64,000 bases of DNA. Origin: Alphaproteobacteria bacterium (GTDB taxonomy: Bacteria; Pseudomonadota; Alphaproteobacteria; Rs-D84). The stretch is taken from positions 15,455-79,454 of the forward strand of contig JAFVSL010000005.1 in assembly GCA_017503725.1 (NCBI GenBank). Direction: 5' to 3'. The notes under the pieces were generated by a model. The model made no database searches and was not told where the DNA came from. It worked only from the letters and a program-made list of their open reading frames with translations. Positions 2,738 to 57,685 of the stretch are shown piece after piece (position 1 is the first letter of the stretch; the number at the start of each line of letters is the position of its first letter). The translations under genes and the position numbers were made by a program.

Positions 2738-2802
2738 TTTTATTCCTGTTGTGTTTTTTATTGCGTTTTAATATAATAAAAATCATAAGAAAGGACGGCA
2801 CA

Positions 2803-3120: not shown

Positions 3121-3148
3121 AAAATCCCGCCGGATGGCGGGATTTTTC
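3121..3148. terminator. Bidirectional rho-independent terminator hairpin (aaaaatcccgccggatggcgggattttt)
   Basis: Perfect GC-rich inverted repeat flanked by A-run and T-run. The same hairpin family recurs at about 4470-4500, 8905-8935, 15186-15215, 19697-19727, 28605-28632, 34608-34633, 35927-35958 and 57652-57685. Confidence 0.8.
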
Positions 3149-10079: not shown

Positions 10080-10851
10080 TGCCGCGTTTTGAACGATTTT
10101 CGATAAAGTCTATGGCGTCCATTGCGTATTTGTTATTTTTGACCTCTTTACGCACCTTGGCCAGGCGGTCTGCGGTTGTCCCTTCGTCATTACGAAATAC
10201 CGCCGAATAAACAGAATGAATTGCGTGCATATCTTCATTTGTAAATCCGTGACGCATCAATCCAACACGATTGATTGTACGATACACGGCACGATTACCA
10301 TCATAAATGGCATATGGCAAAACATCACTGCCAACGCCGGACATACCACCAATAAAGGCATTGCGCCCAATACGTGCGAACTGTAATACCATTGTTCCAC
10401 CAGATAAAATCGCAAAGTCTTCGATTTCGACGTGACCGGCAACCTGGACCAGGTTAGACATAACAACACTGTTGCCAACCTTGCAATCGTGGCCAACGTG
10501 CGCATTAACCATAATCTGACAATCATCGCCAATAACCGTACCATCAGATGCCGGCGTCCCCGAATGAATTGTCGCATATTCACGAATCTTGCAGCGCTTA
10601 CCAATACGCAGACCGGTCATTGTGGATTCATCCTGCCACTTTAAATCCTGGCTCATAACGCCCAGAACTGCGAATGGATAAACAATAGAATCGTCCCCGA
10701 TTGACGTTTTTCCGTCAATAACAACGTGCGACACCAATTCAACGCGATCGCCCAAAACAACGTTCGGCCCAATAATGCAATATGGGCCAATTTTGCAATC
10801 TGCGCCCAGTTTGGCCCCTTCGTGAATAATAGCAGTTGGATGTATAGCCAT
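10054..10851 (-). CDS. lpxA: Acyl-ACP-UDP-N-acetylglucosamine O-acyltransferase
   Basis: Left-handed beta-helix hexapeptide repeats. C-terminal ...RHGF..EDM..I...Y..VF motif region. 265 aa. Overlaps the lpxB start by 26 nt. Confidence 0.9.
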   Translation of the reverse strand: MAIHPTAIIHEGAKLGADCKIGPYCIIGPNVVLGDRVELVSHVVIDGKTSIGDDSIVYPFAVLGVMSQDLKWQDESTMTGLRIGKRCKIREYATIHSGTPASDGTVIGDDCQIMVNAHVGHDCKVGNSVVMSNLVQVAGHVEIEDFAILSGGTMVLQFARIGRNAFIGGMSGVGSDVLPYAIYDGNRAVYRTINRVGLMRHGFTNEDMHAIHSVYSAVFRNDEGTTADRLAKVRKEVKNNKYAMDAIDFIENRSKRGIGTSKNAE

Positions 10852-10934
10852 AATATAACTTCTTTGTTTTATTTATTTTCTGCAGAAATCATACCCTAAC
10901 GGGGCACAAAATGGTATTAAATAAATATAACAAA

Positions 10935-11924
10935 TTATAACAAAGTGCGGAATTCCCGCCAATTTTTAACCTGGGGCAATACGGACAAATACAAAACACC
11001 GATTGCGGCCACCGCCGGCATCGTTGTAATCGTCCCAAACAGTATTACCGTCATCGCCAGCATACGTTCCATTAACCCACGTGGTTGCGCCTTTGCGTGC
11101 CATACCGACAACATAAACAGCACCAATACTGCACCACACATACCAACAAACAACGGCACAGATTCCGTCAGCATAAACAGCGCCATCATCAAAACAGACA
11201 CAACCCGCATCATCCATTTTAATTTCACATAGGCACTTTGACGAATCTTGCCACGCGAATTAACATTGTTAAGCGCAATCACCGCCATTGCGCACACACC
11301 AATCATCAGCACAAAAATCAAATGCACCGGTGTTAAATTACCCAACTGACCAAAGCGGAAAAATTCTGGTTGCATCAGCATTGCCACCGTCACCATCAAG
11401 ATAATTAAAATCATTCCCGCAACCGGTCGCATTGCACCACGTGCCACGCGCCCCATCAGCCAGCCCAACGAACACGCACCAACCTGTAATATTGGCCCCC
11501 ACCAGGCGTGCACGTCAGACATCACCAACGCCAAAAGAATCAAGACCGCAATGGCGAATCGCGCCCGTGCATTTATCTTGAATGCTGGCAAATGACGCAT
11601 ATGCGACGCAACAAACAAAGACGTCAGGAAAACAATAACCGCCACCACAAATGGCAACACCGACACTTCATCGCGCAAAACGGCATAGTTTCCACCAAAA
11701 AGCACAACCCACACAAACGTCAGCAACGCCACCACAACACCACCACGCGCATTGATATTATCCGCCCCCAGTGAAAATTTATCACAAATCATCGGTGCGC
11801 ATTTCCACACCAAAAACATCAAAGGCAACGACAGAACCGCCCACCACAAAAACGCAGGCGCGACCAATGCCGCATTATTAAACGCACTAATTGCACTTTG
11901 CACAATAACAACATCATTAAACAT
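10935..11924 (-). CDS. Polytopic integral membrane protein, about 10 TM segments, function unknown
   Basis: 329-aa ORF that is highly hydrophobic throughout. No diagnostic motif recognised. Confidence 0.55.
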   Translation of the reverse strand: MFNDVVIVQSAISAFNNAALVAPAFLWWAVLSLPLMFLVWKCAPMICDKFSLGADNINARGGVVVALLTFVWVVLFGGNYAVLRDEVSVLPFVVAVIVFLTSLFVASHMRHLPAFKINARARFAIAVLILLALVMSDVHAWWGPILQVGACSLGWLMGRVARGAMRPVAGMILIILMVTVAMLMQPEFFRFGQLGNLTPVHLIFVLMIGVCAMAVIALNNVNSRGKIRQSAYVKLKWMMRVVSVLMMALFMLTESVPLFVGMCGAVLVLFMLSVWHAKAQPRGLMERMLAMTVILFGTITTMPAVAAIGVLYLSVLPQVKNWREFRTLL

Positions 11925-11962
11925 AAACTTGCCTTTTGATTTTGTTGAATTATGATATAGGT

Positions 11963-12646
11963 ATGTCTGAAAAACAAGAAATTTTTACCCTTATGGGGGG
12001 GCGCGTTCGTATGCGCCGTGGTTTTTACAATCCAACATCAGATGCGGTGTGGCTGGCGGCGTTTACGCCAACGGGCGCAAAAACCGTGCTGGATGTCGGA
12101 ATTGGTTCCGGCGGGGTGGGGCTGTGCGTACTGGCGCATAATCCGGACATAAAATTAACGGGGATTGATGTGTCGGATGAAATGCTGAACGCGGCACGCG
12201 AAAACGCCGAATTAAATAACCGGGACATAGAACTAATCAACACCGACATTACCAAATGGCGCACAGACCGCACATTTGATATTGTTGTTACAAACCCACC
12301 ATACTTTCGTGGCACGCCCGCAAAACATAACGCACATCATAATGCAGATTTAACCGCGTGGATAAAGAAATGCGTTGCCCGCACAAAACCAAATGGATAT
12401 TGCTGTGTTATAACTGATGCAACAACCGTGGACAAAATAATTGCAGAAATGTCCGTGAATTGTGGTGATATAAATATCTTTCCGTTATTTGGTGCACGCG
12501 ATACCGCCGAACGCGTATTGTTGCGTGGGCGCGTGGGCGCACGGGGTGGGGCGACGCTGCATCGTGGGTTGCCTATGAATTGGGACCCGGTATTGCGCGA
12601 TGGCTTGACTATCGCCGAATCATTGGGTAAACTGTCCAAGATATGA
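11963..12646 (+). CDS. SAM-dependent methyltransferase with NPPY motif, resembling tRNA1(Val) (adenine37-N6)-methyltransferase of the TrmN6/YfiC type
   Basis: VLDVGIGSGGVGL (motif I) and VTNPPYF (motif IV). Start placed at the ATG 11963 (MSEKQEIF). The six-frame ORF begins at 11936. Confidence 0.65.
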   Translation: MSEKQEIFTLMGGRVRMRRGFYNPTSDAVWLAAFTPTGAKTVLDVGIGSGGVGLCVLAHNPDIKLTGIDVSDEMLNAARENAELNNRDIELINTDITKWRTDRTFDIVVTNPPYFRGTPAKHNAHHNADLTAWIKKCVARTKPNGYCCVITDATTVDKIIAEMSVNCGDINIFPLFGARDTAERVLLRGRVGARGGATLHRGLPMNWDPVLRDGLTIAESLGKLSKI

Positions 12647-44121: not shown

Positions 44122-44189
44122 AACCATCGCCCCAAAATGGGGCGGTTTGAATTTCTGGTTTACCATACGAAGCATTTTGCGAAGTATGG

Positions 44190-44300
44190 CGCGCCCGGCA
44201 GGATTGTAAATTCCCATATTCGCTTTCGCTCTATGGGCCCCTTTCGCCTACGGCTCGAACCCACAGGTTCTCATCCAAGTTCGTGCAACAAAAATTAAAC
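44190..44300 (-). pseudogene. Tandem decayed tRNA 3'-end fragments. TGGCGCGCCCGGCAGGATT is the last 19 nt of a tRNA-Arg, broken in the T-loop. A second T-arm-like piece is GGGTTCGAGCCGTAGG.
   Basis: The acceptor 3' strand CGGGCGC-G-CCA is complementary to the 5' half at 57571-57618. Confidence 0.45.
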
Positions 44301-44326
44301 CGTCCATCCGGACGGTTGAATTTCTG

Positions 44327-44375
44327 GCACGCCCTACAGGATTCGAACCTGTGACCTGCAGATTAGAAATCGTCT
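44327..44375 (-). pseudogene. tRNA-Arg(TCT)-like 3' half: anticodon loop to CCA with no 5' half. Candidate att remnant.
   Basis: Reverse complement CGATTTCTAATCTGCAGGTCACAGGTTCGAATCCTGTAGGGCGTGCCA has an intact T-arm, acceptor and CCA. The upstream sequence is not tRNA-like. Confidence 0.55.
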
Positions 44376-44479
44376 GAACCGAAACCGATTGTTTGCCCGA
44401 TTCCCGCCCTTTGCCACCATTTTACCCTTATACTAAACTCCATACTATGTAGCAAATATGTAACATTTTTACAAAAACG

Positions 44480-45532
44480 CTACACAATTTCCCAATGACC
44501 GCCACGATCTGGACCGATACGGCGAATTTTCCCGGACTTTTTCAATTTATCCAGATTCCACTTTACACCATCCGGGCTAAGCCCTGTTGCGCTGGCCAAT
44601 TCGGCACGTGTTGCACTTGGATTCTTCGCCAATATATCCAAAATTTTCTGGGCAGTTTTCTGGGTAGTTTTCTGGGTAGTTTTCTGGGTAGTTTTTGCCA
44701 CATTTTCCTTTATCTGCATTTCACGATTATCAAGGCGATTTTTCTCGCCCAATAACAAATTACCAAAGAATTTGTTCAAGTATTCCATCGTGTACGGAAT
44801 ATTCTTTTCCAGATTTTGATAATTCGCACGAACCAGTGCATTTCTGAAATATTTCGCATGCTTTTCAAACATTTCATTGTTTGTATGCAAACCCAACGTA
44901 TCTAAATACTTTATAATAAATACAACTGTCGCGCGAGTATTCCCCTCGCCAAACGGGTGTATTTGCCATATCCCAGACATAAATTTTTCAATATGTTCTA
45001 TGCGTTGGCGTTTGGTTAAACTGCTATAATCAAACTGTTTCTCTTGTGCAAAATCGTATTCCAGCGTTTCAGCAATACTGTCTGCCCGACCATAGACAAC
45101 AGTATCATTGTTCAATATTTCTTCTTTCTTGGTTATATTATATGTGCGGAACTGACCAGCTATTTTTTTATCCAGAACACCATCAAATAAAGCCCCATGA
45201 ATCGATTTATATTCGGCCGGGCTGAATGTAAATGTCTTTTCGCTTAATAATTTCGCAATACGTGCAGATACCTTATCAGCTTCTTGCTCGTCTTGCTCTT
45301 TCTGGGTAGTTGCAGCATTTTCATGATAATAGCGATTTATTTCACGTTCTGCATCATAGACCGATATTTTCCCCTCTATATTATCTTTTGCAATATCAAT
45401 CAGATATTTAGATGGCGTTAAATTATCAACCATCTGCAGACCAATGGCAACACCCCAGTTTTCTGCACGAGTGCGTTTATCCGGTTCGCCTTGCTTTTTA
45501 TATTCACTAAAATACTGCTTTTGTCTTGCCAT
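44480..45532 (-). CDS. Fic/DOC family protein with C-terminal winged-HTH. Contains an in-frame TTQK x4 tandem repeat.
   Basis: Fic motif HPFGEGNTRAT. C-terminal wHTH (ILDILAKNPSATRAELASATGLSPDGVKWNLDKLKKSGKIRRI). Confidence 0.8.
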   Translation of the reverse strand: MARQKQYFSEYKKQGEPDKRTRAENWGVAIGLQMVDNLTPSKYLIDIAKDNIEGKISVYDAEREINRYYHENAATTQKEQDEQEADKVSARIAKLLSEKTFTFSPAEYKSIHGALFDGVLDKKIAGQFRTYNITKKEEILNNDTVVYGRADSIAETLEYDFAQEKQFDYSSLTKRQRIEHIEKFMSGIWQIHPFGEGNTRATVVFIIKYLDTLGLHTNNEMFEKHAKYFRNALVRANYQNLEKNIPYTMEYLNKFFGNLLLGEKNRLDNREMQIKENVAKTTQKTTQKTTQKTAQKILDILAKNPSATRAELASATGLSPDGVKWNLDKLKKSGKIRRIGPDRGGHWEIV

Positions 45533-45623
45533 CTCTGAATTTCATAGTAATCAAACTTCCCCACCTTTTCAACCAAGAAATAAAAACGCGGTCATTCGAC
45601 CACGTTTTTTCGTTCGGTTATAT

Positions 45624-48236
45624 TTATTCCTGTTTGTATCGTTTTTCTCTGTTTAAGAAAGCCTCAAAACCGCCCTCTAGAGCATATAATTTGGCACGTT
45701 GTTCCATATTTTCTATGGTAAAACTTGTTATGTTAGAATCTTTATCAAGATGAATCACTTGATCAGAGTCACCATTTATAACTATATTTGCATTGTGTGT
45801 AGCAAAAATAATTTGCCGTTTAGATTTGATGATTTTTAATATTTTTACTAACTCATTATATATTACAGGTTCTCCTAGGTTGCTTTCTGGTTCATCTATA
45901 ATGATTGGTGTATTTCCAAGTGATAATAATATAATAATAGTTGCGGTTGCTCTTTGTCCAAATGAGCAATCCAATATGTTTTTGTTGTTGTACAGTATAT
46001 TTATTTGTTTGTACTTAACAATATTGTTATATATTTCATCATACTTTGTTTGGAATTCATCCCAATAAATTGTTAAATAATTTGATAAATATTCGACAAT
46101 TTTTAAATCTTGTTTTTCTAACTTCTTGATATAATCTTCTGGTTTATTTATGTTTTTTGGGCATATAAAAGAATTGTTCGAAATTAGTCTCCTTTCCAAT
46201 TCAGATATAAAACTACGTTCTGTTATTTTTAATTCTTGCAATCTATGATCTAGCCAATTGATAAAATCTTTATTCGCTGTTCTATAATCAAAAGTTAATT
46301 CAAAGTTTATCAAGGAACTTTCTTTTCCGCCTATGTTAACCATCTTTTGTGATAAAGAAGTAAATTCTTCTTGTAATGTATTCTGATATGCCTTGATATC
46401 ATTATCAATGTCATTTACAACATTTTTCATAGATACTATATCCGAACGAAGTCCAGAAATTTTAATCATGCATTGTTTAATTTGCTCTTCAAGATTCACT
46501 TTGTTTTGTTCCAAAACAAGTTTGTCTGTTAAATTCTCATCGTTTTCAAAACCACGAAGTTTCAAATATTCTTTCAGTTGGTCTTGTATTTGAACGATGT
46601 CTGAATTGATAGTTTGAAGGCGTTTTTCGGTTGTTTCGAATTGTTTTGGAACAAATGTTTCACCGGCAAATACGGTATGTTCTTCTAATAAGGTTCTTAA
46701 AGATTCAAAAATTGCGTTATATGCTATTCCATATTCGCTTGACGGCTCTGCAGGAATATAATTACCTGTTTTGTGTTCATCGGAATGGTGAACAATGCGA
46801 AGTAATTCTAAAATAACTTTTGTGTATTTATCTTTTTCAATTTGTATATTATTACCTTGTAATATATTTGCTCTTAACCGTTTATTAAAATCAATATAAG
46901 TTTCATCACTAATCCCTGAAATGATTTTTTCAATGTGTTGCTGTTTAATGGTTAAATTGTTCTTTTCTGTTTCGGCATCTAATAATTGCTTGTTTTTGTT
47001 TATAATAGAAATGTAACAGGCAAGTTTATTTTGAATACGTTGTTCTATGTCAGAAAGCGTTGGAGATTGTATTCGATGTCTAACAATATTGGTTATTTCA
47101 TAATTTCTTGCTATACTCTCTATCTCGTTTTGTGTGTAGTATTCTACCTGATCTGTGTTTTTTGTTTCTGCTAAAAATTCTGTCGGTTTATATTGTTTGT
47201 TTAATATTTTGTTAATTATATGATCTCCTTTCTCTCTGATCTTTTTATTGATGGATGAAAGCCCCATTTTATAAGCCAGCAAATCTAGAAAGACCGATTT
47301 TCCTGTTCCTCTATCTCCAATTATACAAATCAGTCCTTTGTTAAGAAATACTTCTTGGTTGATTCCAGAAAAGCAAAATTTGTCCTCTTTCCCGTCCACA
47401 AGTGGTATATATACTTCATCAGGTACAGATAACCGAACATTTTCAATATTGTATAAAGATTCTTCAGGAACCGCCCCAGAAGGTTTTACCTGTATTCTAG
47501 ATTCGCATGAGCAAAGCGCCTGTCTTAGACCTTCTAGTGTTAAATCTGATTTGATCCACAAATCTGCTTTAGGGCTATATGCTCTTGCATCGTGATTGTC
47601 GGAACACAGAATCATAGGGTATACACCTATATTTGGAAATACTTTTTCTTTGTATTCTGCCATATCTCTTTCTTGTCCCATTTCAAAAATATCAATTTTG
47701 TTAACAATATCTGTTTTGATAGCTTGAGATACCTGTAACGAATTTGTTATAACATCATCGATACCATTGCTTTTTCTTCCCGCGTGTATAGATACTAGAC
47801 CATTAAATTCTCGGATTATTTCAATGGCCGCATCTATGTTTACATAGATTTCGTCCTCTGTTCTGCCATTCTGCTTCTGATGATATATACCGCCTTTGTG
47901 TTCAAACGAATTATTGATAGCATCAATGTCAACATGTTCATCAAATATCCCGATTATGTGAATATTCTCTCCAGCACCGCATTCTGTTCGAATTTCAATT
48001 CCTGGAAATACAACCAATTTATCTGCAGCTAATCTTTGTAAATTTTCTATTCTATTTTTATCAATATTGTTATGATCTGTTATTACGACCGCAGAAATAT
48101 TTTTTGAAGTTAAACTATTTATGATGTCTTCGTCGGTTATTGCATTATTTTTATAATCTGAAGAAGATGGTGTATGAAAATGCAAATCCCATTTGTGCCA
48201 TTGGGAACCACAAAAAGATTTTCTTAAATTACCCAT
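45624..48236 (-). CDS. 870-aa protein: N-terminal PHP-type phosphoesterase domain plus ABC/SMC-like ATPase with a long coiled-coil insert between Walker A and Walker B. Defence-type single-protein architecture.
   Basis: PHP motifs (WDLHFHTPSSSDY, VITDHNN, HAGR). Walker A GDRGTGKS. Walker B IIIDEPES. H-loop FATHNANIV. A coiled-coil of about 400 aa in between. The gene is AT-rich. Confidence 0.75.
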   Translation of the reverse strand: MGNLRKSFCGSQWHKWDLHFHTPSSSDYKNNAITDEDIINSLTSKNISAVVITDHNNIDKNRIENLQRLAADKLVVFPGIEIRTECGAGENIHIIGIFDEHVDIDAINNSFEHKGGIYHQKQNGRTEDEIYVNIDAAIEIIREFNGLVSIHAGRKSNGIDDVITNSLQVSQAIKTDIVNKIDIFEMGQERDMAEYKEKVFPNIGVYPMILCSDNHDARAYSPKADLWIKSDLTLEGLRQALCSCESRIQVKPSGAVPEESLYNIENVRLSVPDEVYIPLVDGKEDKFCFSGINQEVFLNKGLICIIGDRGTGKSVFLDLLAYKMGLSSINKKIREKGDHIINKILNKQYKPTEFLAETKNTDQVEYYTQNEIESIARNYEITNIVRHRIQSPTLSDIEQRIQNKLACYISIINKNKQLLDAETEKNNLTIKQQHIEKIISGISDETYIDFNKRLRANILQGNNIQIEKDKYTKVILELLRIVHHSDEHKTGNYIPAEPSSEYGIAYNAIFESLRTLLEEHTVFAGETFVPKQFETTEKRLQTINSDIVQIQDQLKEYLKLRGFENDENLTDKLVLEQNKVNLEEQIKQCMIKISGLRSDIVSMKNVVNDIDNDIKAYQNTLQEEFTSLSQKMVNIGGKESSLINFELTFDYRTANKDFINWLDHRLQELKITERSFISELERRLISNNSFICPKNINKPEDYIKKLEKQDLKIVEYLSNYLTIYWDEFQTKYDEIYNNIVKYKQINILYNNKNILDCSFGQRATATIIILLSLGNTPIIIDEPESNLGEPVIYNELVKILKIIKSKRQIIFATHNANIVINGDSDQVIHLDKDSNITSFTIENMEQRAKLYALEGGFEAFLNREKRYKQE

Positions 48237-48388
48237 ATTATTTGTGCCCTTATGTTAATATTATTATATATCCAATATACCGATACAAGTATAGCTTGGT
48301 TTAATTTTATTTTCAACCTTGCAAATACCTGTTACTTTTGCCAAAATATAAATACACAGTATATCCATATGAAGTCAGCAACCCCATC

Positions 48389-48760
48389 ATGATCACGATA
48401 TTATTATCCATTAAGCCGCAATTTGTAAAAAAGATACTTTCTGGTGAAAAGTGTTTTGAATTCAGAAAGCATATTCCAAATAAAGCGATTGATAAAATTT
48501 TGATATACAGTTCCTATCCGGTGTGTGCTGTTGTAGGAGAGGTAGAAGTTCTAAGTATAATATCTACATCGCCAAAAAAGCTGTGGGAAGAAACTAAAAA
48601 TCAATCGGGAATTGATTCTGAGTTCTTTTTCAAATATTTTGCCGGCAAGGATACAGCATACGCATATAAGCTAGGCAAAATAACAAAATATCCAATTGCA
48701 AAACAGTTAAGTGACTTCGGGGTAAAATATGCCCCTCAGTCATTTGTTTACATAAAGTAA
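48389..48760 (+). CDS. ASCH (PUA-like) domain protein
   Basis: MITILLSIKPQFVKKILSGEKCFEFRK resembles the N-terminal beta-barrel of ASCH domains. ATG at 48389. The six-frame ORF begins at a TTG at 48338. Confidence 0.5.
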   Translation: MITILLSIKPQFVKKILSGEKCFEFRKHIPNKAIDKILIYSSYPVCAVVGEVEVLSIISTSPKKLWEETKNQSGIDSEFFFKYFAGKDTAYAYKLGKITKYPIAKQLSDFGVKYAPQSFVYIK

Positions 48761-48761
48761 A

Positions 48762-49727
48762 TTACCATTCTACATCGATGTAAAACATATCGGCTGGTTG
48801 ACCAAGCAACTGTATATCGAATTTCAAACTTGGTTCTACAATCGTGCTGGCACTGTGTATTCTGAAAGATATCGCCCAACCATTGTCCATTGTTAACACG
48901 ATGGTCGTTTTAGAACCGGGTTTGTATGCTAATTCAATAATTCTTGTAGGTAGTTTGATTTTTGGGATGCTAATCTGCGGTTTAGACACTTTAGATGACT
49001 GGTTTAGGGTGCCGCATACATTAAATGGCATTACTGTGGTTTTATGATCGTTATGGTGGATTAGTTTATAATAATCTTTGCCATTTGACCCCAGTAGATA
49101 TGCGATTATTCCAGATGTAACTTTATCATTATGCAGTTTGAATAGGCTATTAAACTCATCAATAAATGCATCTAAAACTGGCACATAAACGCCATCTTGC
49201 TTATCTGGTAAATCTGACCACGCCACACCGTTATGTTTCAACTCTATAAGCCGGTTAAAAATTGGAGTTATAGCAGAAAAATATTTGTCCGAGCACGGTA
49301 AACCAAACCATTCGTTCCCAAAATCAATATGTTGGGACAATCTGGAGTGTTTAAGAGCAGCATGATTATGTTTCACGGATATCCCTATCTCCCATTTAAT
49401 ATCTCTGCGAATTATGATGACATCACGAATATCACCAGTTCTTGCAATATTATCTGGTTGTAAAAATATTGTCAACGCATCTCTTCCGTCTTCAATGATC
49501 TTTGGTTCCATTTGAATAATGACATCTATACCGGCTGCAGCTGATTTTAGCATATCTTGCTGAACTGTTTCTGTTACACATTCAAAACATTGTTTAGCTA
49601 CCGCAAAGCTGGAGTTTTCTTCAATCGTCACAGGACGGATCTTGGAAACCTTATCATGTATTGTTTGCAAACATGCGTATTCGTATGCCTTGCCCATAAT
49701 CATTGATTGTTCGGTGGATCTGTTCAT
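48762..49727 (-). CDS. Probable Type II restriction endonuclease partnered with the adjacent C5-methyltransferase
   Basis: 321-aa ORF overlapping the MTase stop by 4 nt on the same strand. No sequence motif is conclusive. Assignment is by context and size. Confidence 0.45.
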
Positions 49728-50713
49728 TCGGTTAAATCCTCCATAATCTGTTTTGCAATTTCAAAAGCTAGATTGACAGGAACTGCATTGCCAATCATTT
49801 TGTATCCCACAGCAACATCGGTATATACAAAAATGAAGTCATCCGGGAAGGTTTGGATTCTTGCGCACTCGCGCACGGAAAGTCTGCGATAAGCAGATTC
49901 TTGTCCTTTTACAAATTCGAACTTGTCAGTACTTGCCTTTTGCATAGCTGGTGCGCTGGGGTGTAATGGTGCTTGGCGACCTCCAGCCTGAATAGTGAAA
50001 GAAGGTTCATTCCATCCCCTTACACGATTTCGTGACATAAATATAGAAGACCAGCCACCGATCATGTATTCATGATTAGGAATTTGCAATTCTCCATTGG
50101 TCTTGTTCTTTTCTTTTGCTGGAATTGCGGTCGGCAAATCGCCGATCGCATCTTTCAGGGTTGGCTTATATTCTTTTGGTGCAGGAAACACAAATTTCTT
50201 TTTAAGATCTTTGCGATATCCAATTATGATAACCCTTTTGCGGGTTTCTGGAACGTTATAATCATTAGCATCCACCAATTGCCAGAATATATCATATCCA
50301 CAATCTTCAAATTCTTTTAGAAATCCCTGAAACGCATCAGCGTGTTTTGGATGTAATATGCCAGCCACATTTTCTACCAAGAAGAACTTGGGTTGTTTTA
50401 CTTTCAAAATCCGAATATAGTCATAAAACAGTTGGCCTCGTTTATCTTCTATTCCTCGTCTCGCTCCAGCTTCCGACCAACTTTGACATGGAGGTCCACC
50501 TATAATGCCGATAGAATCTGGGATTTCGCTAGCATCAACATCGGTAATGCTACGTCTGTCCAGCTTAGTGTGTGGAAAATTACGTTCAAAAGTCGCCCAT
50601 ATAGTTTTATCAAACTCATTTGCCCATATAGTATGAAAACCTGCTTTTTCAAAACCTAAATCTAAACCACCAGCACCGCTAAAAAACGACACAACACTAA
50701 AATCTTTCGACAT
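49724..50713 (-). CDS. DNA (cytosine-5)-methyltransferase, from memory closely resembling the GGCC-specific M.HaeIII
   Basis: Motif [12 protein letters not shown], motif [11 protein letters not shown], motif VI ENVAGIL, the C-terminal ...[16 protein letters not shown], and the variable region ...KNKTNGE...[33 protein letters not shown]. Confidence 0.9.
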
Positions 50714-50844
50714 TTTCCTTCCCTTTGGGTTTCTCTCAAAGGGCGGAATAATTAAACCACGAAATTGTTGTTACACAAAAACAATTGCTGAAATCGGTTG
50801 ATTTTCGCGGTTTTTTTATTTACAATTTTGGAACAATTAAAGGG

Positions 50845-51441
50845 TCATTTTCTGCTTTCAAGAAATCGCGAAATTGTGGGCGGGCTGACCCGGATAGTTC
50901 TGGCAATTTTTCGTTTAGAAACTCCTGCTGAATACATATCTAAAATCAAGTTTTCATGACCGTCAATGATATGGTAAGTATTCTTTTGGCCATTTGGACG
51001 GCCCAGTTTTACACCGCGTAATTGCAATGCTGCCAATGCCTCTTTGGTGCGCTGGGCGATAAGATTACGTTCAATCTCAGCTGATAGCCCAAATGCAAAC
51101 GCTAAAACCTTAGATTGAATAGTGTCACCCAACTCATAGCCATCTTTGACGGTATAAAGACGCGCCCCTATTTTCATGCAATGTTCCAATATTCGCATAA
51201 TCATGAACATTTTTCGCCCAAGACGCGAAAGTTCACTACATATTATAACGTCGCCCGGATTTAAATGTTGCAAAACACCGCCTAATGCGCGTTGCTCTGG
51301 CTCTTTGGTGCCGGAAATGCCCGCATCTTCAATGTATTTATCAATACAAAGCCCTAATGCGCTGGCTTTGGATTCAATGCCCAATTTTTGGTTTTCACAG
51401 TCTTGTTTATCGGTCGAAACCCGAATATACCCATATATCAC
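50845..51441 (-). CDS. Serine recombinase (resolvase/invertase family)
   Basis: N-terminal catalytic MIYGYIRVSTDKQ (Ser nucleophile). C-terminal HTH. 198 aa. Confidence 0.85.
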   Translation of the reverse strand: MIYGYIRVSTDKQDCENQKLGIESKASALGLCIDKYIEDAGISGTKEPEQRALGGVLQHLNPGDVIICSELSRLGRKMFMIMRILEHCMKIGARLYTVKDGYELGDTIQSKVLAFAFGLSAEIERNLIAQRTKEALAALQLRGVKLGRPNGQKNTYHIIDGHENLILDMYSAGVSKRKIARTIRVSPPTISRFLESRK

Positions 51442-51597
51442 AATAAACTCCTTTGGTTTGTTGTTCTATATGCCGTAGATTTCATTTTATTCAAGTAAAA
51501 ATAATGTTGATATTACCCTTGCTTTTACTAAATGTCGTATTATTAAACTGGATGTTTGCGCTGGTTGTGCTTTGTTTGTTCTAAAAAAGGAGTAAGC

Positions 51598-52767
51598 ATG
51601 ACATTAAAAGAATCAATCAACAACCTAGAAATACGGATAATCAAGGATAAACAGCAACTTATTCGCCTAGAGCGGGAATTAAATAAAAATCAACAACTAA
51701 CAATAAAAATCTTGCAACAAATTTGTCAGCAAATGCAAATGACACAAAAAACACAGTATACCAAGCGGTTATCAATTGGTGAGGTGCTGGAACGTTACAG
51801 AATAAAAAACGGAATAGACAGCGAGGAGACCAAGCGTAAATGCAAAACTATAGCATATTATTCAAATAAAGTAGGCTTAGAATTGAAATGCGAGTATACA
51901 AAATTTCATAGGGATGTAATTTTGTTGAAAATATTTAATGAAATATCAGATAGAAAAGATATAAAGGGGGATCAGAAAGCAAAGCATGCTAGATGGATTG
52001 TTAGTTTTGTAAAATTTGCAGTATTTGCATATCCTGACCTGTATAAAACAGATGTGCTGGTTGGACTTCCATCTATGAAAAAAACACCCAAAAGCGCCAA
52101 ATGCCCCCATACTCCATATACAGATGAACAATTGAAGTCTATTTTTGACCCGAATAAGAAATTCTTTTATTATAATCCAGAGATTTTTTGGGGGTGTATG
52201 ATAGCATTATTTACTGGTGCAAGAAAAAATGCAGCATTTACATTACAATACAAAGATATAATTCTAAAAGATGGTATTTGGTGTATAAATTTCATAGAAG
52301 ACAGTCCAGGAATTAAACAATTAAAAACAGAAGAGTCTGAGCGAATAGTACCAATTCATTCGGCGCTTTTGAAAATGGGTTTCTTAGAATACATCAATAA
52401 AAAACATAAAAACAATGATCAAGATTTTATCTTTAAAAAGACATGCTTGACCTCCAAAGGCAATCTAAATCCTCACATTACGAGGAACTTTTTTATATAC
52501 CTAAAAGATATCGGTGTAAAAAATCCAGAATATGGAAGGTTTGATTTTCATTCATTCCGTAAAAATGCAAACATTATGATGGAAAAATGCGGGATACTCC
52601 GACCCTATATAGATAAGATTATCGGTTGGATGAGTCGTGGTAGCGAGGGCGAAAGATCATATTCAAATTACTCCATAAAACAAGTGTCGGAACAATTAGA
52701 ATTATTACGCTACGATTGTCTCAAAACGGAATTTAAGAGATGGCAAAAGATAATGTCTAAGATATAA
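51598..52767 (+). CDS. Tyrosine integrase/recombinase (phage integrase family)
   Basis: C-terminal catalytic region with R...H.FRKNA...GW...Y pattern. RBS AAGGAG upstream of ATG 51598. Confidence 0.7.
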   Translation: MTLKESINNLEIRIIKDKQQLIRLERELNKNQQLTIKILQQICQQMQMTQKTQYTKRLSIGEVLERYRIKNGIDSEETKRKCKTIAYYSNKVGLELKCEYTKFHRDVILLKIFNEISDRKDIKGDQKAKHARWIVSFVKFAVFAYPDLYKTDVLVGLPSMKKTPKSAKCPHTPYTDEQLKSIFDPNKKFFYYNPEIFWGCMIALFTGARKNAAFTLQYKDIILKDGIWCINFIEDSPGIKQLKTEESERIVPIHSALLKMGFLEYINKKHKNNDQDFIFKKTCLTSKGNLNPHITRNFFIYLKDIGVKNPEYGRFDFHSFRKNANIMMEKCGILRPYIDKIIGWMSRGSEGERSYSNYSIKQVSEQLELLRYDCLKTEFKRWQKIMSKI

Positions 52768-52839
52768 AAAATTCGATTATTTCACTAGATATTCCATTTT
52801 TTGTTGGCATTGTTGTGTTGAAAAAACAAGAGGCACAAC

Positions 52840-53373
52840 ATGACAACGATAAACAAGCAACACGGGTTCTATGGTGCACTGGCGACACGCTATGACAGTC
52901 CGGTCCACCGACAGGAAATCTGGGACTTAGCGATTAAACGCCTGGGGCAAATTCACTCCGAAAAGTCCGCCGCAGAAATCGTAGACTTTCTGAACAGTCG
53001 TACCGGGCGACACCTGGCCGATGAAATATTTGATGACCCCGGCACCCTAAGCTATGGGGTGGCGATGCTACGCATAGCAATGCTGAACAGGCTTAAAATG
53101 GCGAAATGGTGGGCGCATTACAGTGGCACCACGCTGCACACAGCGCCGGTGGACAAGCGTATGCTGTACCGATCGGCAATCAAGAACGAGATGCGCAATC
53201 GGCAAATACGAAAACTGATAGAAGATGCGCTGGCGTGCACCCATTACGAAGTTTGGCAGACCCCAGAAATGTGGTTGAAATCAGACCTGACAGGTTTGGA
53301 CGAGCTGGAAATGATGTGGACACAGATTCAGCAAGAACTAAAAACCAAAGGCGCCACACATGGAAACGATTGA
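52840..53373 (+). CDS. Hypothetical island protein
   Basis: ORF with ATG. No motifs recognised. Confidence 0.4.
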   Translation: MTTINKQHGFYGALATRYDSPVHRQEIWDLAIKRLGQIHSEKSAAEIVDFLNSRTGRHLADEIFDDPGTLSYGVAMLRIAMLNRLKMAKWWAHYSGTTLHTAPVDKRMLYRSAIKNEMRNRQIRKLIEDALACTHYEVWQTPEMWLKSDLTGLDELEMMWTQIQQELKTKGATHGND

Positions 53374-53629
53374 TGCACTGGAACGGAAACTGCACGCCGC
53401 CCAACAACAGGCATGCAACGCTAAATACCCAACGGGGCTGATAGTTGATCTGAACGGGCCAGCCGGCAATATCTTCTATCTTATGGGCATGTGTAATCGG
53501 CTGGTACGGGAACTGCAATTAAGGCCCGCTGAACGCCAAGAATTTGAAACCGAACTATATGCCACCAGGGACTATCAATCCCGACTGGCTGTCATGGCAA
53601 AATGGTTCGGAATCGTGTTTGTAAAGTAA
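53360..53629 (+). CDS. Hypothetical island protein, 89 aa, start overlapping the upstream stop
   Basis: ORF only. Confidence 0.35.
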   Translation: METIDALERKLHAAQQQACNAKYPTGLIVDLNGPAGNIFYLMGMCNRLVRELQLRPAERQEFETELYATRDYQSRLAVMAKWFGIVFVK

Positions 53630-53702
53630 AACCTGGATTGTTTTTTAAGTCCACAAAAAAAGATCTTCTTACTTTATTGCTTTTTCTTGATTTTTATGGA
53701 TT

Positions 53703-54173
53703 ATGGGGTATGATTTCTGTATGAAAAATAATAATCGACGTGTTATTCTTAACCGTTTTTTTGAAGAATTGGACGATGAGACAAAGTGGACACGGGCACG
53801 CGTTGAGGCACAAATTTATTCTGCGGTCATCCTTGCTATTCAGATGGATAAAAACGACAAAACACGGCAACACATGTTGGCAACATGGCCGGCGGAATGT
53901 TCTGTTCGATATGAATGGTTTGAATCTGTTATTGCAGACGTTAAATTGCCCCCAAATATAGCCCCCTTTGATAACACACACGATAATTTTTATAATGTTT
54001 TGGTGCATTGGTTAGATTCTGTGGACAGTGTCACAGATAGAAAATTATTGATTCTGCATTCAATCGGTTTATCAATGAATAAAATCGGCAAAAAGACTGG
54101 GCTGTTACGTCAGACCGCCAGTCGTCGTTACACCAACGCAATCGATGCGCTGGTTTGGAAATTAAACCACTAA
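53703..54173 (+). CDS. Hypothetical protein with C-terminal HTH resembling sigma-70 region 4 or a LuxR-type helix
   Basis: LILHSIGLSMNKIGKKTGLLRQTASRRYTNAIDALVWKL. Confidence 0.4.
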   Translation: MGYDFCMKNNNRRVILNRFFEELDDETKWTRARVEAQIYSAVILAIQMDKNDKTRQHMLATWPAECSVRYEWFESVIADVKLPPNIAPFDNTHDNFYNVLVHWLDSVDSVTDRKLLILHSIGLSMNKIGKKTGLLRQTASRRYTNAIDALVWKLNH

Positions 54174-54334
54174 ACAAACTAACCTGTATACTTATATCGT
54201 ACCTTTTTATACCGTAAAGTAACCTAAACTAACTTAATTTCCTTTTTGTCGCAAAAACGTGCATTGCGCACGGTTATTTTTTATGCATATATCTTTACAT
54301 AGACTCATCAAAACCCGAAACAAAAGGACAAACC

Positions 54335-54544
54335 ATGACAACAATATTATCCAAGGACGAATATATGACGGAACGCGCGCTGGCTGAAATGTGGGGATTG
54401 AAACGCAATACTTTACAAAAATGGCGCAGTACCGGTGTTGGACCAAAATTTCTAAAACGTGTTGGTCGCATTGTATATCGGAAACAAGATATAGCTGAAT
54501 TTGAACAAAACAACATATTTCAGCGTACAAGCGACAAGCAATAG
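54335..54544 (+). CDS. AlpA-like excisionase / MerR-type HTH DNA-binding protein
   Basis: 69 aa. LAEMWGLKRNTLQKWRSTGVGPKF is typical of AlpA/Xis-family prophage regulators. Lies among the integrases. Confidence 0.55.
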   Translation: MTTILSKDEYMTERALAEMWGLKRNTLQKWRSTGVGPKFLKRVGRIVYRKQDIAEFEQNNIFQRTSDKQ

Positions 54545-54547
54545 GAA

Positions 54548-55135
54548 ATGGTTATGAAACGGCTGGCCAATCCAAAATGGGCACTTTTATTGGAAAATAT
54601 ATCACGCGAAGAACGCGGCGACATATTTATGGCGATTTTGAAATACCCCGACTTGGAATGTTCAAGCGCTGTGTGGCCATTTATAAAAGCCGAACTAGAT
54701 GAAGACGATATTAAATATAAAGCCAAATGTGAACGACTGGCCACGAACAGATTGGCGCGTTGGGGCGAACAGAATTCATCAGATATCAAACAGAACTTAT
54801 CAGATATCAGACAGAAATCAGATGCAATAGCAAATAGCAAGTACAGTACAAACACAATAAAACAAAACAAGGAAATGCATACTCATACGAATGATTTGCT
54901 TCAAAAATTAGCAACTTCTTTTAACCCATCACGAGAGCCAACATATCACATAGACAACGAATTTTCGTTAGCCAAAATCATTAAGAGAACCCCAAACTTG
55001 TTCCCAATATTCGATGAATTTACACCGGAACAAATTGCAAATGGGGAAACCTCATTGAAACGCAAATGCATGGGACAAGATAAAACGATGGCACAAATCA
55101 TAGGATGGATAAGAAATGAAGGAAATTTCACATAA
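54548..55135 (+). CDS. Hypothetical island protein
   Basis: ORF only. Confidence 0.4.
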   Translation: MVMKRLANPKWALLLENISREERGDIFMAILKYPDLECSSAVWPFIKAELDEDDIKYKAKCERLATNRLARWGEQNSSDIKQNLSDIRQKSDAIANSKYSTNTIKQNKEMHTHTNDLLQKLATSFNPSREPTYHIDNEFSLAKIIKRTPNLFPIFDEFTPEQIANGETSLKRKCMGQDKTMAQIIGWIRNEGNFT

Positions 55136-55248
55136 AAACATAATAGGTTCTGTGACGAGTTTTCACATTGAGGGTAACGGCGACCGCGACACTTGCCTAG
55201 CGACAGAAATAAAAAAACGGTGAACGGCGAACACTAAAAGGGGTAACG

Positions 55249-55728
55249 ATGTTATTATCTAGAAGAGAATATGCCGCACATCGCGGTGTTGCGGTATCCG
55301 CAGTCCAAAAAGCCATTGAAACAGGACGAATAACACTAATAGACGGGAAAATAGACCCCGAAAAGGCGGATAAAGAATGGGCAGAGAACACTAACCCAGC
55401 CTATAACACCCCGCGCACAAATGACAGTTCTTCAAATTCTTATCAAAGAAGCAAAGCAATGAAGTCGACATACGATGCAATGCTGAAAAAACTGGAATAC
55501 GAAGAACGTGTAGGAAAGCTAATACCATTAGCACAAGCACAATCTGAGGCTTTTGCGGCAGCCCGATTTTCAAGGGATCAATTACTGATGATTCCGCGAC
55601 GTGTTGCACCGCGACTTATCGGACAAACAAACATTTCCGACATTGAGTATATCTTGACCCAAGAAATTACAGAGGCGTTAAGAAATTTATGCAACATATT
55701 ACAAGGAAACAAAGGAGAACAAAAATGA
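55249..55728 (+). CDS. Hypothetical protein with N-terminal HTH-like segment
   Basis: RBS AAAAGGGG. REYAAHRGVAVSAVQKAIETGRI is HTH-like. Confidence 0.4.
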   Translation: MLLSRREYAAHRGVAVSAVQKAIETGRITLIDGKIDPEKADKEWAENTNPAYNTPRTNDSSSNSYQRSKAMKSTYDAMLKKLEYEERVGKLIPLAQAQSEAFAAARFSRDQLLMIPRRVAPRLIGQTNISDIEYILTQEITEALRNLCNILQGNKGEQK

Positions 55729-55955
55729 CACAAAACACAAAAACTGAAATCAAAACTGCATGGGATAAAACAGTTGCATTTTTAATAGAAAAATCAGACA
55801 CAGTATCTGAAAACATCGCATTGGAAATAATAGGAAAACCCAAAGATGAAATACATGCAATTTTAAGTCGCGCAATGACAGAATTCTGGGACATGGGCGA
55901 GCAATATTTCATACAAGAAATCCGCAAAAGCCAGCAAAAAATACAAGAGTCTTGA
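55725..55955 (+). CDS. Hypothetical small protein, 76 aa
   Basis: ATGA overlap with the upstream gene. RBS AAAGGAGAAC. Confidence 0.4.
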   Translation: MTQNTKTEIKTAWDKTVAFLIEKSDTVSENIALEIIGKPKDEIHAILSRAMTEFWDMGEQYFIQEIRKSQQKIQES

Positions 55956-56018
55956 TAGTCTTATTCACTGGACTTGTGCGCTTTTATTATCAATGTTGTG
56001 TGTAACAAAGGACAACAT

Positions 56019-57230
56019 ATGCGGGCACTTAAATGTCAAAAGTTGGTTTTAACAACAGGATTTCTGAACAAACTGAAATCCGACATTGATTTGCAAATAA
56101 CAGATGCAGCACTGCCAGGGCTACAATGCCGGTATTCGGCCGCATCTGGACGCAAAGTGTTCTATTTGGGATATCGCGTTCGCGGTTCATATCAACAAAA
56201 GCATATGAGATTGGGCACATTGGCGGAATTTAGCTTAAATGAGATTCGCGCACGTGCGATACAAACCAAACAAGATATCGCCAACGGTCTGGACCCGCAA
56301 TCAGAACAACGCATACGCATAAAGCAAAACGAAATGGCCGCAGCACGACGTAAACAAGTCCGTGAACTAACCCCAATATTTATGGAAAAACATTGTCGCG
56401 AAAATAATCGGGAAAACACCTATCGCTCAAACGAAACATTGATGCGCCTATATATAATCCCATATCTTGGCGATAAATACATTGCAGATATTGATCTGCG
56501 CACAATCCAGGATATGTACGATAAAATCAAAAACACAAAAACCGTTGCTGTTGGATTGCATGTTATGCGGTTATTATCGACCTTTCTAAATTGGTGTGAA
56601 AAATACAATTATCGCACAATAAATTCGAATCCGTGCCATTTGGTTCAAAAGGCAAAATCCCCAAAGATGAACCATACGATTCTAGATATTGATGGTTATA
56701 AACGTTTATTTACTGCACTGGACGAGGCATTTTGCGCTGGGAAATATGCACCACAAACCATCCTGGCTATTAAAACACTTGCGCTGACGGGCTGTCGCAG
56801 CAGCGAAATAACAAGCCTGGAACGGGACGAATTAGACCTAGAAAACGGGTATCTACGTTTAAATAAACGCAAAACAGATGCATTTAATGTACCGCTGGGC
56901 GATCCAGCAATCGAAGTTATAAAACAGGCATTGAGAATTTGTAAAAGCAAACAGTATGTTTTTCATTCCCCAATTGACCATACACGCCCATTAACCGATT
57001 TACGTAAAGCGTTCTGGTGGGCATTGGATCGTGCTGGATTACCGCGTATGCGAATACACGACCTGCGCCACTCTTTTGCAACACTGGCCACCAGCATGGG
57101 CGAAGATATACGAATATTAAAAGACGTATTGGGACACACAAAAATCACCACAACTGAAATATACGCACACGCATCAAGTATTGCGGCACGCCGCACTGCA
57201 AACAATGTTGCAAGCATGATAACAGGATAA
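56019..57230 (+). CDS. Phage-type tyrosine integrase (P4-like), convergent on tRNA-Arg
   Basis: Catalytic residues in ...GCRSSEITSLERDELDL... HDLRHSFATLA ... TTEIYAH (R, H-x-x-R, Y). RBS AAAGGA upstream of ATG 56019. Confidence 0.85.
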   Translation: MRALKCQKLVLTTGFLNKLKSDIDLQITDAALPGLQCRYSAASGRKVFYLGYRVRGSYQQKHMRLGTLAEFSLNEIRARAIQTKQDIANGLDPQSEQRIRIKQNEMAAARRKQVRELTPIFMEKHCRENNRENTYRSNETLMRLYIIPYLGDKYIADIDLRTIQDMYDKIKNTKTVAVGLHVMRLLSTFLNWCEKYNYRTINSNPCHLVQKAKSPKMNHTILDIDGYKRLFTALDEAFCAGKYAPQTILAIKTLALTGCRSSEITSLERDELDLENGYLRLNKRKTDAFNVPLGDPAIEVIKQALRICKSKQYVFHSPIDHTRPLTDLRKAFWWALDRAGLPRMRIHDLRHSFATLATSMGEDIRILKDVLGHTKITTTEIYAHASSIAARRTANNVASMITG

Positions 57231-57296
57231 ATTGGTGAATACTGGGTCAACAAATAAAAAGAAAATCGGGGTAAACCCGATTTAATTTTTGGCGTG

Positions 57297-57373
57297 CCCA
57301 GCAGGATTCGAACCTGCAACCTATTGCTTAGAAGGCAATTGCTCTATCCGGTTGAGCCATGGGCACAAAACCA
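57297..57373 (-). tRNA. tRNA-Arg (anticodon TCT), CCA encoded. Its 3' end faces the integrase.
   Basis: Reverse complement GTGCCCATGGCTCAACCGGATAGAGCAATTGCCTTCTAAGCAATAGGTTGCAGGTTCGAATCCTGCTGGGCACGCCA folds as a perfect cloverleaf. Confidence 0.85.
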
Positions 57374-57570
57374 ACTGTATGGAATTCGGCACACCATGCG
57401 ACCAATTCCTGTGTAACATTCTATGTAACAAATATGTAACATTATACATACAATTACATACAATTCAATCAATCTGTGTCAAGTTTTATACAGAACTGAT
57501 TTTCACGCACACCCGCATAAATCCAACCTTTATACATCTTTATCCAAATCTATCCATAAAAATTGCGGAC

Positions 57571-57618
57571 GATTAGAAATCCGATGCTCTATCCAGCTGA
57601 GCTACGGGCGCACGACGC
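57571..57618 (-). pseudogene. tRNA-Arg 5' half (acceptor, D-arm, anticodon stem 5' strand and loop TTTCTAA), broken after the anticodon loop
   Basis: Reverse complement GCGCCCGTAGCTCAGCTGGATAGAGCATCGGATTTCTAATCG, then non-tRNA sequence. Its acceptor matches the fragment at 44195-44213. Confidence 0.55.
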
Positions 57619-57685
57619 ACATTTTATATCAAAATTATTAAGATTTCAAGCACACACAAATAAAAAATGCCCCAACGGGGCATTT

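Follow-up and report, generated by a model that had tools for sequence, protein, structure and literature searches.

The window, as we call the whole 64-kb stretch of alphaproteobacterial DNA analysed here, contains a tRNA-Arg(UCU) gene that is broken into pieces, together with a complete tRNA-Arg(UCU) gene of different sequence, and all tRNA genes around the split site are on the minus strand. The pieces of the broken gene were placed in the window by string searches that required an exact match. The 5' half of the host gene, running from the acceptor stem to the anticodon loop, occupies positions 57571-57611 and reads GCGCCCGTAGCTCAGCTGGATAGAGCATCGGATTTCTAATC, after which non-tRNA sequence follows, and the gene adjoining this half encodes a DUF308 protein. 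A tRNA-Arg 3' half (GATTTCTAATCTGCAGGTCACAGGTTCGAATCCTGTAGGGCGTGCCA), which extends from the anticodon loop to CCA, is found at 44325-44371, and a shorter fragment (AATCCTGCCGGGCGCGCCA) that covers the T-loop to CCA lies at 44187-44205. The first-pass annotation had described the same four tRNA pieces and all of them exist, on the minus strand, but its coordinates were off by a few bases: the 5' half had been extended to 57571-57618, the 3' half had been assigned to 44327-44375 and the T-loop fragment to 44195-44213.

No tRNA is detected at the attL or the attR junction either by ARAGORN or by the Rfam tRNA model, for which the gathering score is 29 bits. The 5' half reaches a sub-threshold 20.6 bits with this model, and in the 3' half the T arm alone scores, with 15.3 bits. 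A promoter-like site of the host gene, which is a consensus match (TTGAAA-17-TAAAAT), is present at 57621-57649 on the minus strand, and would now drive the stranded 5' half only.

An empty site is found in L005, a 348-kb contig of an uncultured alphaproteobacterium (GCA_965135105.1) that was reached via a DUF308 homologue with 91% identity. In this contig the DUF308 gene is directly followed by one intact tRNA-Arg(TCT), and downstream of the tRNA there is a 144-aa ORF, TspO, Dus and RodZ, which are also the genes to the left of 44187 in the window. Positions 1-41 of the L005 tRNA are identical to the 5' half of the window (41/41), and positions 59-77 to the fragment at 44187-44205 (19/19), which agrees with the earlier remark that the acceptor of the 5' half matches this fragment. 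The flanks match as well: upstream of the tRNA, 75/80 nt are identical, including the region of the promoter-like site, and the first 48 nt downstream are identical throughout. Thus, the uninterrupted tRNA-Arg of this relative has the same sequence as the pieces in the window and not a different one, which supports the split. Since L005 matches at both ends, the host tRNA-Arg(UCU) gene of the window has been pulled apart and the whole of 44206-57570 is insertion; both the split and the empty site are in this respect demonstrated by sequence comparison. An exact-protein look-up of the DUF308 protein, intended to find an empty site in the same strain, returned island-bearing contigs only.

Attachment sites and gene content of the island

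The two ends of the inserted element share the common core GATTTCTAATC, an exact 11-mer that corresponds to anticodon-loop positions and is present at 57571-57581 in attL and at 44361-44371 in attR. The 11-mer occurs exactly twice in the 64 kb, compared to 0.04 occurrences expected from shuffles. The island between the two core copies extends from 44372 to 57570 and measures 13,199 bp (13.2 kb). At attL, the core continues as GTCCGCAATTTTTATGG, which is not tRNA sequence, both in the window and in 19 other loci, and a weak hairpin with a T-run spans this junction (57566-57583). The P' arm of the island (57367-57570, minus strand) begins with GTCCGCAATTTTTATGGATAGATTTGG and displays a mean identity of 89-93% over 15 loci. 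The P arm (44372-44470, minus strand) ends with ...AATCGGTTTCGGTTCAGAC, and the same arm joins host-type 3' halves in attR-type junctions of L020 and of five metagenome contigs (L097, L099-L102). A search for arm-type repeats near both ends, as had been proposed, revealed three copies of TG(T/C)TACA(T/C) in the P' arm (57411-57418, 57423-57430 and 57434-57441) and two in the P arm (44447-44454 and 44458-44465, 70-95 nt from the core); the 64-kb window contains 13 copies of this motif when both strands are counted, 5/13 of them within the two arms.

When attP is rebuilt from the island sides of attR and attL, it reads ...GGTTCAGAC-GATTTCTAATC-GTCCGCAATT..., and the sequence across the attP junction is GGTTCAGACGATTTCTAATCGTCCGCAATT, as opposed to GCATCGGATTTCTAATCTGCAGGTCAC across the restored attB. 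The attP core (...CAGAC-GATTTCTAATC-GTCCG...) is centred on GACGATT-TCT-AATCGTC, a perfect 7-bp inverted repeat around the anticodon, and the symmetry of attB is that of the natural anticodon stem-loop (CGGATT-TCT-AATCCG). The short inverted repeats noted previously, CGGA...TCCG and CAGA...TCTG, are present at each core copy as described. The suggestion that they resemble core-type sites can be refined, as they are hybrids in which one half is the host anticodon stem and the other half is the palindromic attP core. Because attP and attB share 11 bp only and the 3' segment of the tRNA is absent from attP, the host gene is not regenerated but stays split. The empty site in L005, the identical 11-bp cores at both ends and the precisely conserved junctions together show integration within the anticodon loop, where the first annotation had placed it.

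The excised attP junction (GGTTCAGACGATTTCTAATCRTCCGYAATT) has no match in viral contigs. A shorter pattern that combines the P arm with the core has seven matches in metagenomes, all of which are of the attR type or come without a tRNA half, and none is an attP. Current mobility of the window copy is unproven, because no attP junction was found in the viral contigs or among these seven metagenome matches.

The island encodes a tyrosine integrase of 403 aa (56019-57230, plus strand) with an arm-binding N-terminal domain, the gene of which is convergent with the island-borne tRNA gene. The protein matches the Pfam families Phage_integrase (6.5e-24), Arm-DNA-bind_3 (1.1e-10) and Phage_int_SAM_3 (1.2e-8), an architecture that fits the label of P4-like integrase it had been given. 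The backbone of the island (52840-55955, plus strand) consists of a 177-aa and an 89-aa protein, DUF6362, HTH_17, DUF6291, a small terminase subunit and an 88-aa protein. Among these, the HTH_17 protein is excisionase-like (54335-54544, plus strand; phrog_66, 1.7e-6), the small terminase subunit is encoded at 55249-55728 on the plus strand (phrog_57, 9.7e-29), and two backbone proteins match phage families of unknown function. The segment from the 89-aa protein through the integrase is kept beside the integrase in most related loci, and the 177-aa protein is limited to those loci where the integrase is 98-99% identical. The remaining part (44480-52767) is variable cargo that is absent or different in most related loci. 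It includes a Fic/wHTH protein (PDC-S72), a PDC-M11B-like ORF, a HaeIII-type restriction-modification pair, a TrlF-family/Ppl-like ATPase of 870 aa, a serine resolvase and a second tyrosine recombinase. NCBIfam gives nothing above cut-off on the backbone, and its sole match in the island is the TrlF-family ATPase of the cargo. Capsid, tail and lysis genes are missing from 44372-57570 according to PHROGs and Pfam, and no primase or replicase is recognised among the island proteins in profile searches. The element looks like a phage satellite or a mobilisable defence island, and not like a prophage.

The island-borne tRNA-Arg(UCU) and its spread

The complete tRNA-Arg(UCU) gene of the island (DNA anticodon TCT) is located at 57290-57366 on the minus strand, between the P' arm and the integrase gene, and is recognised by ARAGORN as well as by Rfam (73.1 bits, E=5.5e-16). 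It has the acceptor strands GTGCCCA/TGGGCAC and standard pairs at 21/21 stem positions, and is 204 nt from the core, which confirms the intact tRNA-Arg(TCT) with acceptor GTGCCCA reported about 200 nt away from the 5' half. A promoter-like site (TTGAAT-16-TATAAT; 57441-57468, minus strand) was identified by its consensus match only, and when other loci are aligned they show an equivalent TTGAA(A/T)...TA(A/T)AAT. On the other side of the gene, a hairpin with T-runs on both strands (57263-57283) is terminator-like for both the island tRNA and the integrase gene, which converge here.

The island tRNA differs from the host allele at 17/77 positions, 10 of which fall within the first 41 and affect the acceptor and anticodon stems among others, and when compared to the nearest host allele it still displays 13 differences, including four compensatory pair changes. 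It also travels with the integrase across differing host 5' halves. These differences uphold the earlier view that the island brings its own tRNA instead of rebuilding the host gene. A collection of 18 island-tRNA copies, the one in the window included, was assembled from the related loci, and in the 15 loci with full flanks the tRNA has a mean identity of 98%, as opposed to 77% in the 50 nt upstream and 59% in the 60 nt downstream. All substitutions in the tRNA among these 15 loci fall in the D- or the T-loop. Such a pattern shows purifying selection on this gene.

Relatives of the element were located with an alignment of 22 integrase homologues, used for a scan of one genome per species. 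An integrase 91-99% identical to that of the window is encoded by 22 species-representative genomes, all of which belong to Candidatus Enterousia or to unnamed gut Alphaproteobacteria. In 19/22 of these genomes the junction ...TTCTAATC(G/A)T(C/T)CG(C/T)AATT is found at the same nucleotide, and in 18/19 of these loci it is preceded by a tRNA-Arg 5' half. At least six alleles of the host 5' half are represented (GCGCCCT, GCGCCCA, GCGCCCG-TAGCACAA and others), and the upstream flanks are unrelated. The island tRNA lies about 245 nt from the host 5' half in the relatives, and is kept together with the integrase in 18 related genome loci. At sites flanked by a DUF308 homologue, this protein is only 61-66% identical and the integrase 91-98%, which indicates horizontal transfer of the island and independent insertions at one and the same position in different tRNA-Arg alleles. 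The comparison of these loci thus demonstrates precise junctions and a conserved module, along with horizontal spread.

Three loci illustrate the variation around this theme. In L038, where the integrase is 58% identical, the gene is also split in the anticodon loop and the acceptor strands of the two halves are perfectly complementary (GCGCCCC/GGGGCGC). The L038 element, too, has a tRNA-Arg(TCT) of its own, which is oppositely oriented and retains the full core. In L026 (integrase 93% identical), an intact host-type tRNA is located exactly at the position of the island tRNA, and the latter is absent. The possibility that L026 arose by a deletion reaching from the host 5' half to the island tRNA was rejected, as the L026 tRNA is host-type throughout. 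L031 (integrase 93% identical) is likewise found beside an intact host-type tRNA without an island tRNA, in a non-standard arrangement, and both relatives count against the explanation preferred below. Integrases at 35-42% identity (L041-L095) are not accompanied by a tRNA-Arg, several being beside tRNA-Asn and others beside no tRNA, so that the split-and-replace trait is confined to the clade with at least 58% identity.

Serial events at the attR end

The 3' half at attR (44325-44371) is not the native one, from which it differs at five positions (41, 49, 65, 66 and 72). Two of these five changes form a compensatory pair in the T-stem, which argues for another allele and not for decay. The 3' half is followed by 119 nt (44206-44324, minus strand) that appear to be a remnant of an earlier insertion and possess a terminator hairpin of their own (CCGTCCGGATGGACGG), and then by the native T-loop-to-CCA end. 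The foreign 3' half together with the 119-nt remnant suggests that an older event preceded the island. This is in part what had been proposed: at least two events are supported by the five differences and the remnant, but instead of being nested they are better described as serial events at one hot spot.

Three island-free contigs of the same species (L011, L013 and L014), in which the DUF308 protein is 99% identical, share both the 3' half and the 119 nt with the window without any difference. In L011, the 119 nt are enclosed by 59-nt direct repeats, which begin in the T-loop and reach 40 nt beyond the tRNA gene. A displaced T-loop-to-CCA direct repeat is a feature of classical islands, and at this locus it is present for the older remnant only. 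This arrangement is the signature of a classical insertion that came earlier, restored the tRNA and was later reduced to a stump by deletion. The mosaic tRNA could alternatively have arisen by recombination between strains. Two other identities of the remnant were rejected: a widespread miniature element, as blastn matches (100% identical) are confined to L011, L013 and L014 of the same species, and a known RNA, as no Rfam family matches.

Joining the 5' half to the 3' half at attR yields a sequence that ARAGORN still calls as tRNA-Arg, but with G1.U72, G7.A66 and G29.U41. As the older insertion had exchanged the 3' part of the host gene, excision of the island would restore an imperfect tRNA only. 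The mismatch between the two halves also means that the target was already a hybrid at the time of insertion, or that it recombined later.

Interpretation and comparison with known systems

The arrangement is most likely explained by a 13.2-kb satellite-like defence island of Candidatus Enterousia that split the host tRNA-Arg(UCU) gene at its anticodon loop and that supplies AGA decoding with its own tRNA. The arm-binding tyrosine integrase of the island would have carried out recombination between the attP core and the host anticodon loop, leaving the host gene split between attL (5' half) and attR (3' half). Transcription of the island tRNA would start from the TTGAAT-16-TATAAT site and end at the hairpin common to the integrase gene. 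AGA decoding would then come from an island gene that has its own promoter-like and terminator-like sites inside the att-int module, and the host would thereby be tied to the island. Catalysis of the insertion by this integrase and expression of the island tRNA are both what we infer from the locus. The genomes of Ca. Enterousia are 0.75-1.0 Mb in size (PMC12306168), which makes a single tRNA gene per anticodon probable. Accordingly small genomes would make the host dependent on the island tRNA, supposing that no second tRNA-Arg(UCU) exists in genomes of ~1 Mb, of which the window covers 64 kb only.

A broader reading can be offered tentatively, as one that we hold to be possible but not the more probable case. 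Satellite-like defence islands may have spread among reduced-genome gut Alphaproteobacteria by destroying the sole tRNA-Arg(UCU) and substituting a recoded copy, and the host would be addicted, as deletion of the island would mean the loss of AGA decoding. Compensatory changes in the anticodon stem might shield the island tRNA from its own integrase, and repeated rounds might drive the turnover of an essential tRNA gene across species. Even the island-free strain of the same species might rely on a foreign tRNA-Arg, located beside a stranded 3' half. If so, the islands would provide the first example that is not a temperate phage.

The role of the island tRNA could also be sought in codon supply, such that it chiefly boosts the translation of the mobile element, which uses AGA heavily, as its helper phage presumably does too, and the loss of the host gene is tolerated otherwise, for example by a second copy. 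Codon usage is consistent with this proposal, since AGA makes up 30% of the Arg codons in the island ORFs as opposed to 3% in the host ORFs of the window (15.4 versus 1.7 per 1000 codons; Fisher p=1e-19). The rarity of AGA in host genes, at 3% of Arg codons, is also a point against the explanation preferred here. On the other hand, the island tRNA has the same anticodon as the destroyed gene and is retained wherever an island copy splits that gene, and codon supply leaves unexplained why L026, which has no island tRNA, adjoins an intact host-type tRNA. We consider codon supply unlikely as the chief role, although it is compatible with replacement of the split host gene as an additional one, and the island tRNA probably serves the island's own translation as well.

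It is less probable still that the recoding of the island tRNA primarily serves to evade anticodon nucleases or the island's own integrase, with replacement of the host gene being secondary. The island tRNA carries C32 and a changed anticodon stem, and reads GCCTTCTAAGC where the core reads GATTTCTAATC, 3/11 positions being mismatched through compensatory stem changes. Furthermore, phage tRNAs that dodge anticodon nucleases via loop changes are among the reports cited in PMC11476347 and PMC10865867. However, no anticodon nuclease was identified in the window, and the tRNA of the L038 element keeps the full core; for the latter reason, self-immunity of island tRNAs to the integrase is weak as a general rule.

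Classical reconstitution, in which 57290-57366 would be the regenerated host gene and the 5' half would be debris of a degraded second element in tandem, is very improbable. In its favour, L032 shows that elements can be arrayed in tandem at this hot spot, and L026 and L031 look classical. The intact tRNA of the window, however, differs from the host allele at 10/41 of the first positions, and its acceptor strands pair with each other and not with those of the host. In addition, the tRNA and its 204-nt spacer are near-identical across species with differing host 5' halves, and the P arm at the far end joins the same core directly. Finally, a chimeric metagenome assembly or binning across repeated tRNA sequence can practically be dismissed, for although the source is a metagenome-assembled genome and two short contigs end within the island tRNA, the same arrangement was independently assembled in at least four samples of this species and is found in 19 other genomes from different studies.

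Splitting of the host gene with provision of a replacement follows a logic that has already been described as tRNA-dependent lysogeny and is not a new mechanism. In these systems, which were shown experimentally in the mycobacteriophage Fionnbharth and inferred for several actinobacteriophage clusters (Guerrero-Bustamante & Hatfull, mBio 2024, PMC10865867), an Int-Y acts on an attB within a tRNA gene through a core of 8-17 bp, the tRNA is not reconstituted, and the cognate phage tRNA is required for viable integration. Fionnbharth, LeBron, Cain and Gaia are the systems named, and the authors predicted a wider occurrence, citing Lj965 (PMC10865867). The island has the same components: a tyrosine integrase with an arm-binding domain, an attB in a host tRNA gene that is an intact tRNA-Arg(TCT) at the empty site of L005, a short core of 11 bp with no functional tRNA at either junction, and a cognate tRNA-Arg(TCT) with 73.1 bits. 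The position of the tRNA differs, as it is inside the att-int module here but overlaps gene 37, apart from attP-int, in Fionnbharth (PMC10865867). Unlike these phages, the island is not a complete phage, and has a small terminase subunit, an excisionase-like gene and defence cargo. Its host is a reduced-genome gut alphaproteobacterium and its target is tRNA-Arg(UCU), and it is known from sequence alone, in contrast to the actinobacteriophage cases.

In classical islands, the crossover reportedly takes place in the anticodon loop of 7 nt, which has the symmetric strands of the anticodon stem on either side (Williams, NAR 2002). The tRNA 3' segment in the attP of such islands regenerates the target, according to the Islander database article (PMC4383910). 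The element of the window resembles them in having a tyrosine integrase beside a tRNA and a displaced gene fragment at the far end, but its attP is without a tRNA 3' segment and the target is not regenerated at either junction.

Inactivation of a host tRNA and import of a foreign cognate tRNA have also been reported on bioinformatic grounds for prophage-like sequences of Sinorhizobium meliloti (PMC11476347, PMC12429752), and the Lactobacillus johnsonii prophage Lj965 is mentioned as replacing a disrupted host tRNA in PMC10865867. The integrases, hosts and tRNA targets of these elements differ from those of the island. With phage-inducible chromosomal islands the satellite-like element shares a size of ~13 kb, an integrase, an excisionase/AlpA-like HTH protein, a small terminase subunit, defence cargo and the lack of virion genes, but neither a replication module nor a helper phage was identified for it.

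A strategy shown experimentally only in actinobacteriophages (2024) is thus extended to another phylum and another class of mobile element, and comparison with 19 other species-level genomes adds evidence for a split-and-replace module that is stable and horizontally successful. Island finders that expect a regenerated tRNA and a displaced fragment will mis-map such islands, and tRNA censuses of metagenome-assembled genomes may score the island gene as that of the host. If the dependence is true, a defence island in a minimal genome would be stabilised by its tRNA, which would act as an addiction module. The attP-tRNA-int cassette is compact (~1.7 kb) and may also be of use as an integration tool, as has been suggested for the mycobacterial systems. 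A last likeness to the actinobacteriophages is that close relatives occur with and without the trait, which there applies to Cain and Ximenita, and here to the window element and L026.

Composition and the tRNA-Arg gene in island-free and related genomes

The island ORFs (window 44372-57570) have a G+C content of 36%, compared with 46% for the host ORFs in the rest of the window, and AGA accounts for 30% of their arginine codons versus 3% in the host ORFs (within the window; Fisher p=1e-19).

Three contigs of the same species lack the island (L011, positions 10660-12530, and likewise L013 and L014); their DUF308 protein of the host flank is 99% identical, and the native 5' half of the tRNA gene is absent. 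On these contigs, the DUF308 gene is followed by an insert of 1.4 kb that holds four small ORFs and then by a foreign tRNA-Arg(TCT) of 76 nt with the acceptor GCACCCG, from which a 126-nt spacer leads to the stranded 3' half and the 119-nt remnant, both as they occur in the window. The spacer of L011 is similar to the native flank downstream of the tRNA in L020, a relative that carries attR. An imported tRNA-Arg seems to be what the island-free strain L011 lives on as well.

Two other relatives, L026 and L031, encode an integrase 93% identical to that of the window, and the island tRNA is missing from both. In L026, an intact host-type tRNA (12135-12211) occupies exactly the island-tRNA position, and the island sequence begins directly after its CCA. 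The host tRNA of L031 (11273-11511) is also intact; next come a ~120-nt remnant and a fragment running from T-loop to CCA, and the terminator and integrase of the island follow. These two may represent classical, tRNA-restoring relatives.

Insertions at the tRNA-Arg locus

The tRNA-Arg locus that houses the island is a general insertion hot spot. The CCA end of the tRNA in L010 is directly followed by a phage-like region (1809-3232) that encodes a large serine recombinase. L006 (10610-13245), L007 and L009 carry a 2.6-kb insert upstream of the tRNA, within the DUF308 terminator; besides an ADP-ribosylglycohydrolase gene, this insert contains the 144-aa ORF of the host flank in a second copy. 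In the sister species (L005-L010; L005 ~8930-9916), a gene for a 328-aa reverse transcriptase (RVT_1) takes the place of the sulfatase and diacylglycerol kinase genes found ahead of DUF308 in the window.

Cargo and its boundary with the backbone

Where backbone and cargo meet (window 50845-52767), a gene for a serine resolvase lies with one for a second tyrosine recombinase, which is divergent (Phage_integrase 1.4e-10) and lacks the arm domain. About half of the related loci have a homologue of the resolvase upstream of their backbone, with otherwise varying cargo, and this recurrence beside changing cargo hints at a cargo-exchange site at the boundary. Within the cargo, an 870-aa protein (45624-48236) reaches 381 bits as a TrlF-family AAA-like ATPase, above the NCBIfam cut-off of 350. 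Its N-terminus has a PHP-like domain, and there is a further match to the anti-phage protein Ppl. In addition, the C-terminal region of the Fic/wHTH gene, near the start of the winged-helix domain, contains four tandem copies (44644-44691) of the 12-nt unit TTTTCTGGG(C/T)AG.

Attachment junctions

At position 4570 of L032, non-tRNA sequence stands before the island's attL core (...aacacAACAGATTTCTAATC, then ATCCG), and a tRNA-Arg of host type whose 3' half is intact (6188-6239) lies ~1.6 kb beyond this core, at the contig end; the arrangement resembles a tandem array whose second element has restored the gene. In L096 (459-478) and L098 (773-792), the P arm and core of the island are fused to sequence other than a tRNA 3' half (tcacatttctactttt...), a junction that could reflect either a secondary attachment site or a deletion.

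The attL junction of the window itself (57566-57583, minus strand) folds into a small hairpin (CGGATTTCTAATCGTCCG; weak scan match, 5 pairs), after which comes CAATTTTTAT. The T-run is kept in all attL copies, and the site could terminate the transcript still initiated at the host tRNA promoter.
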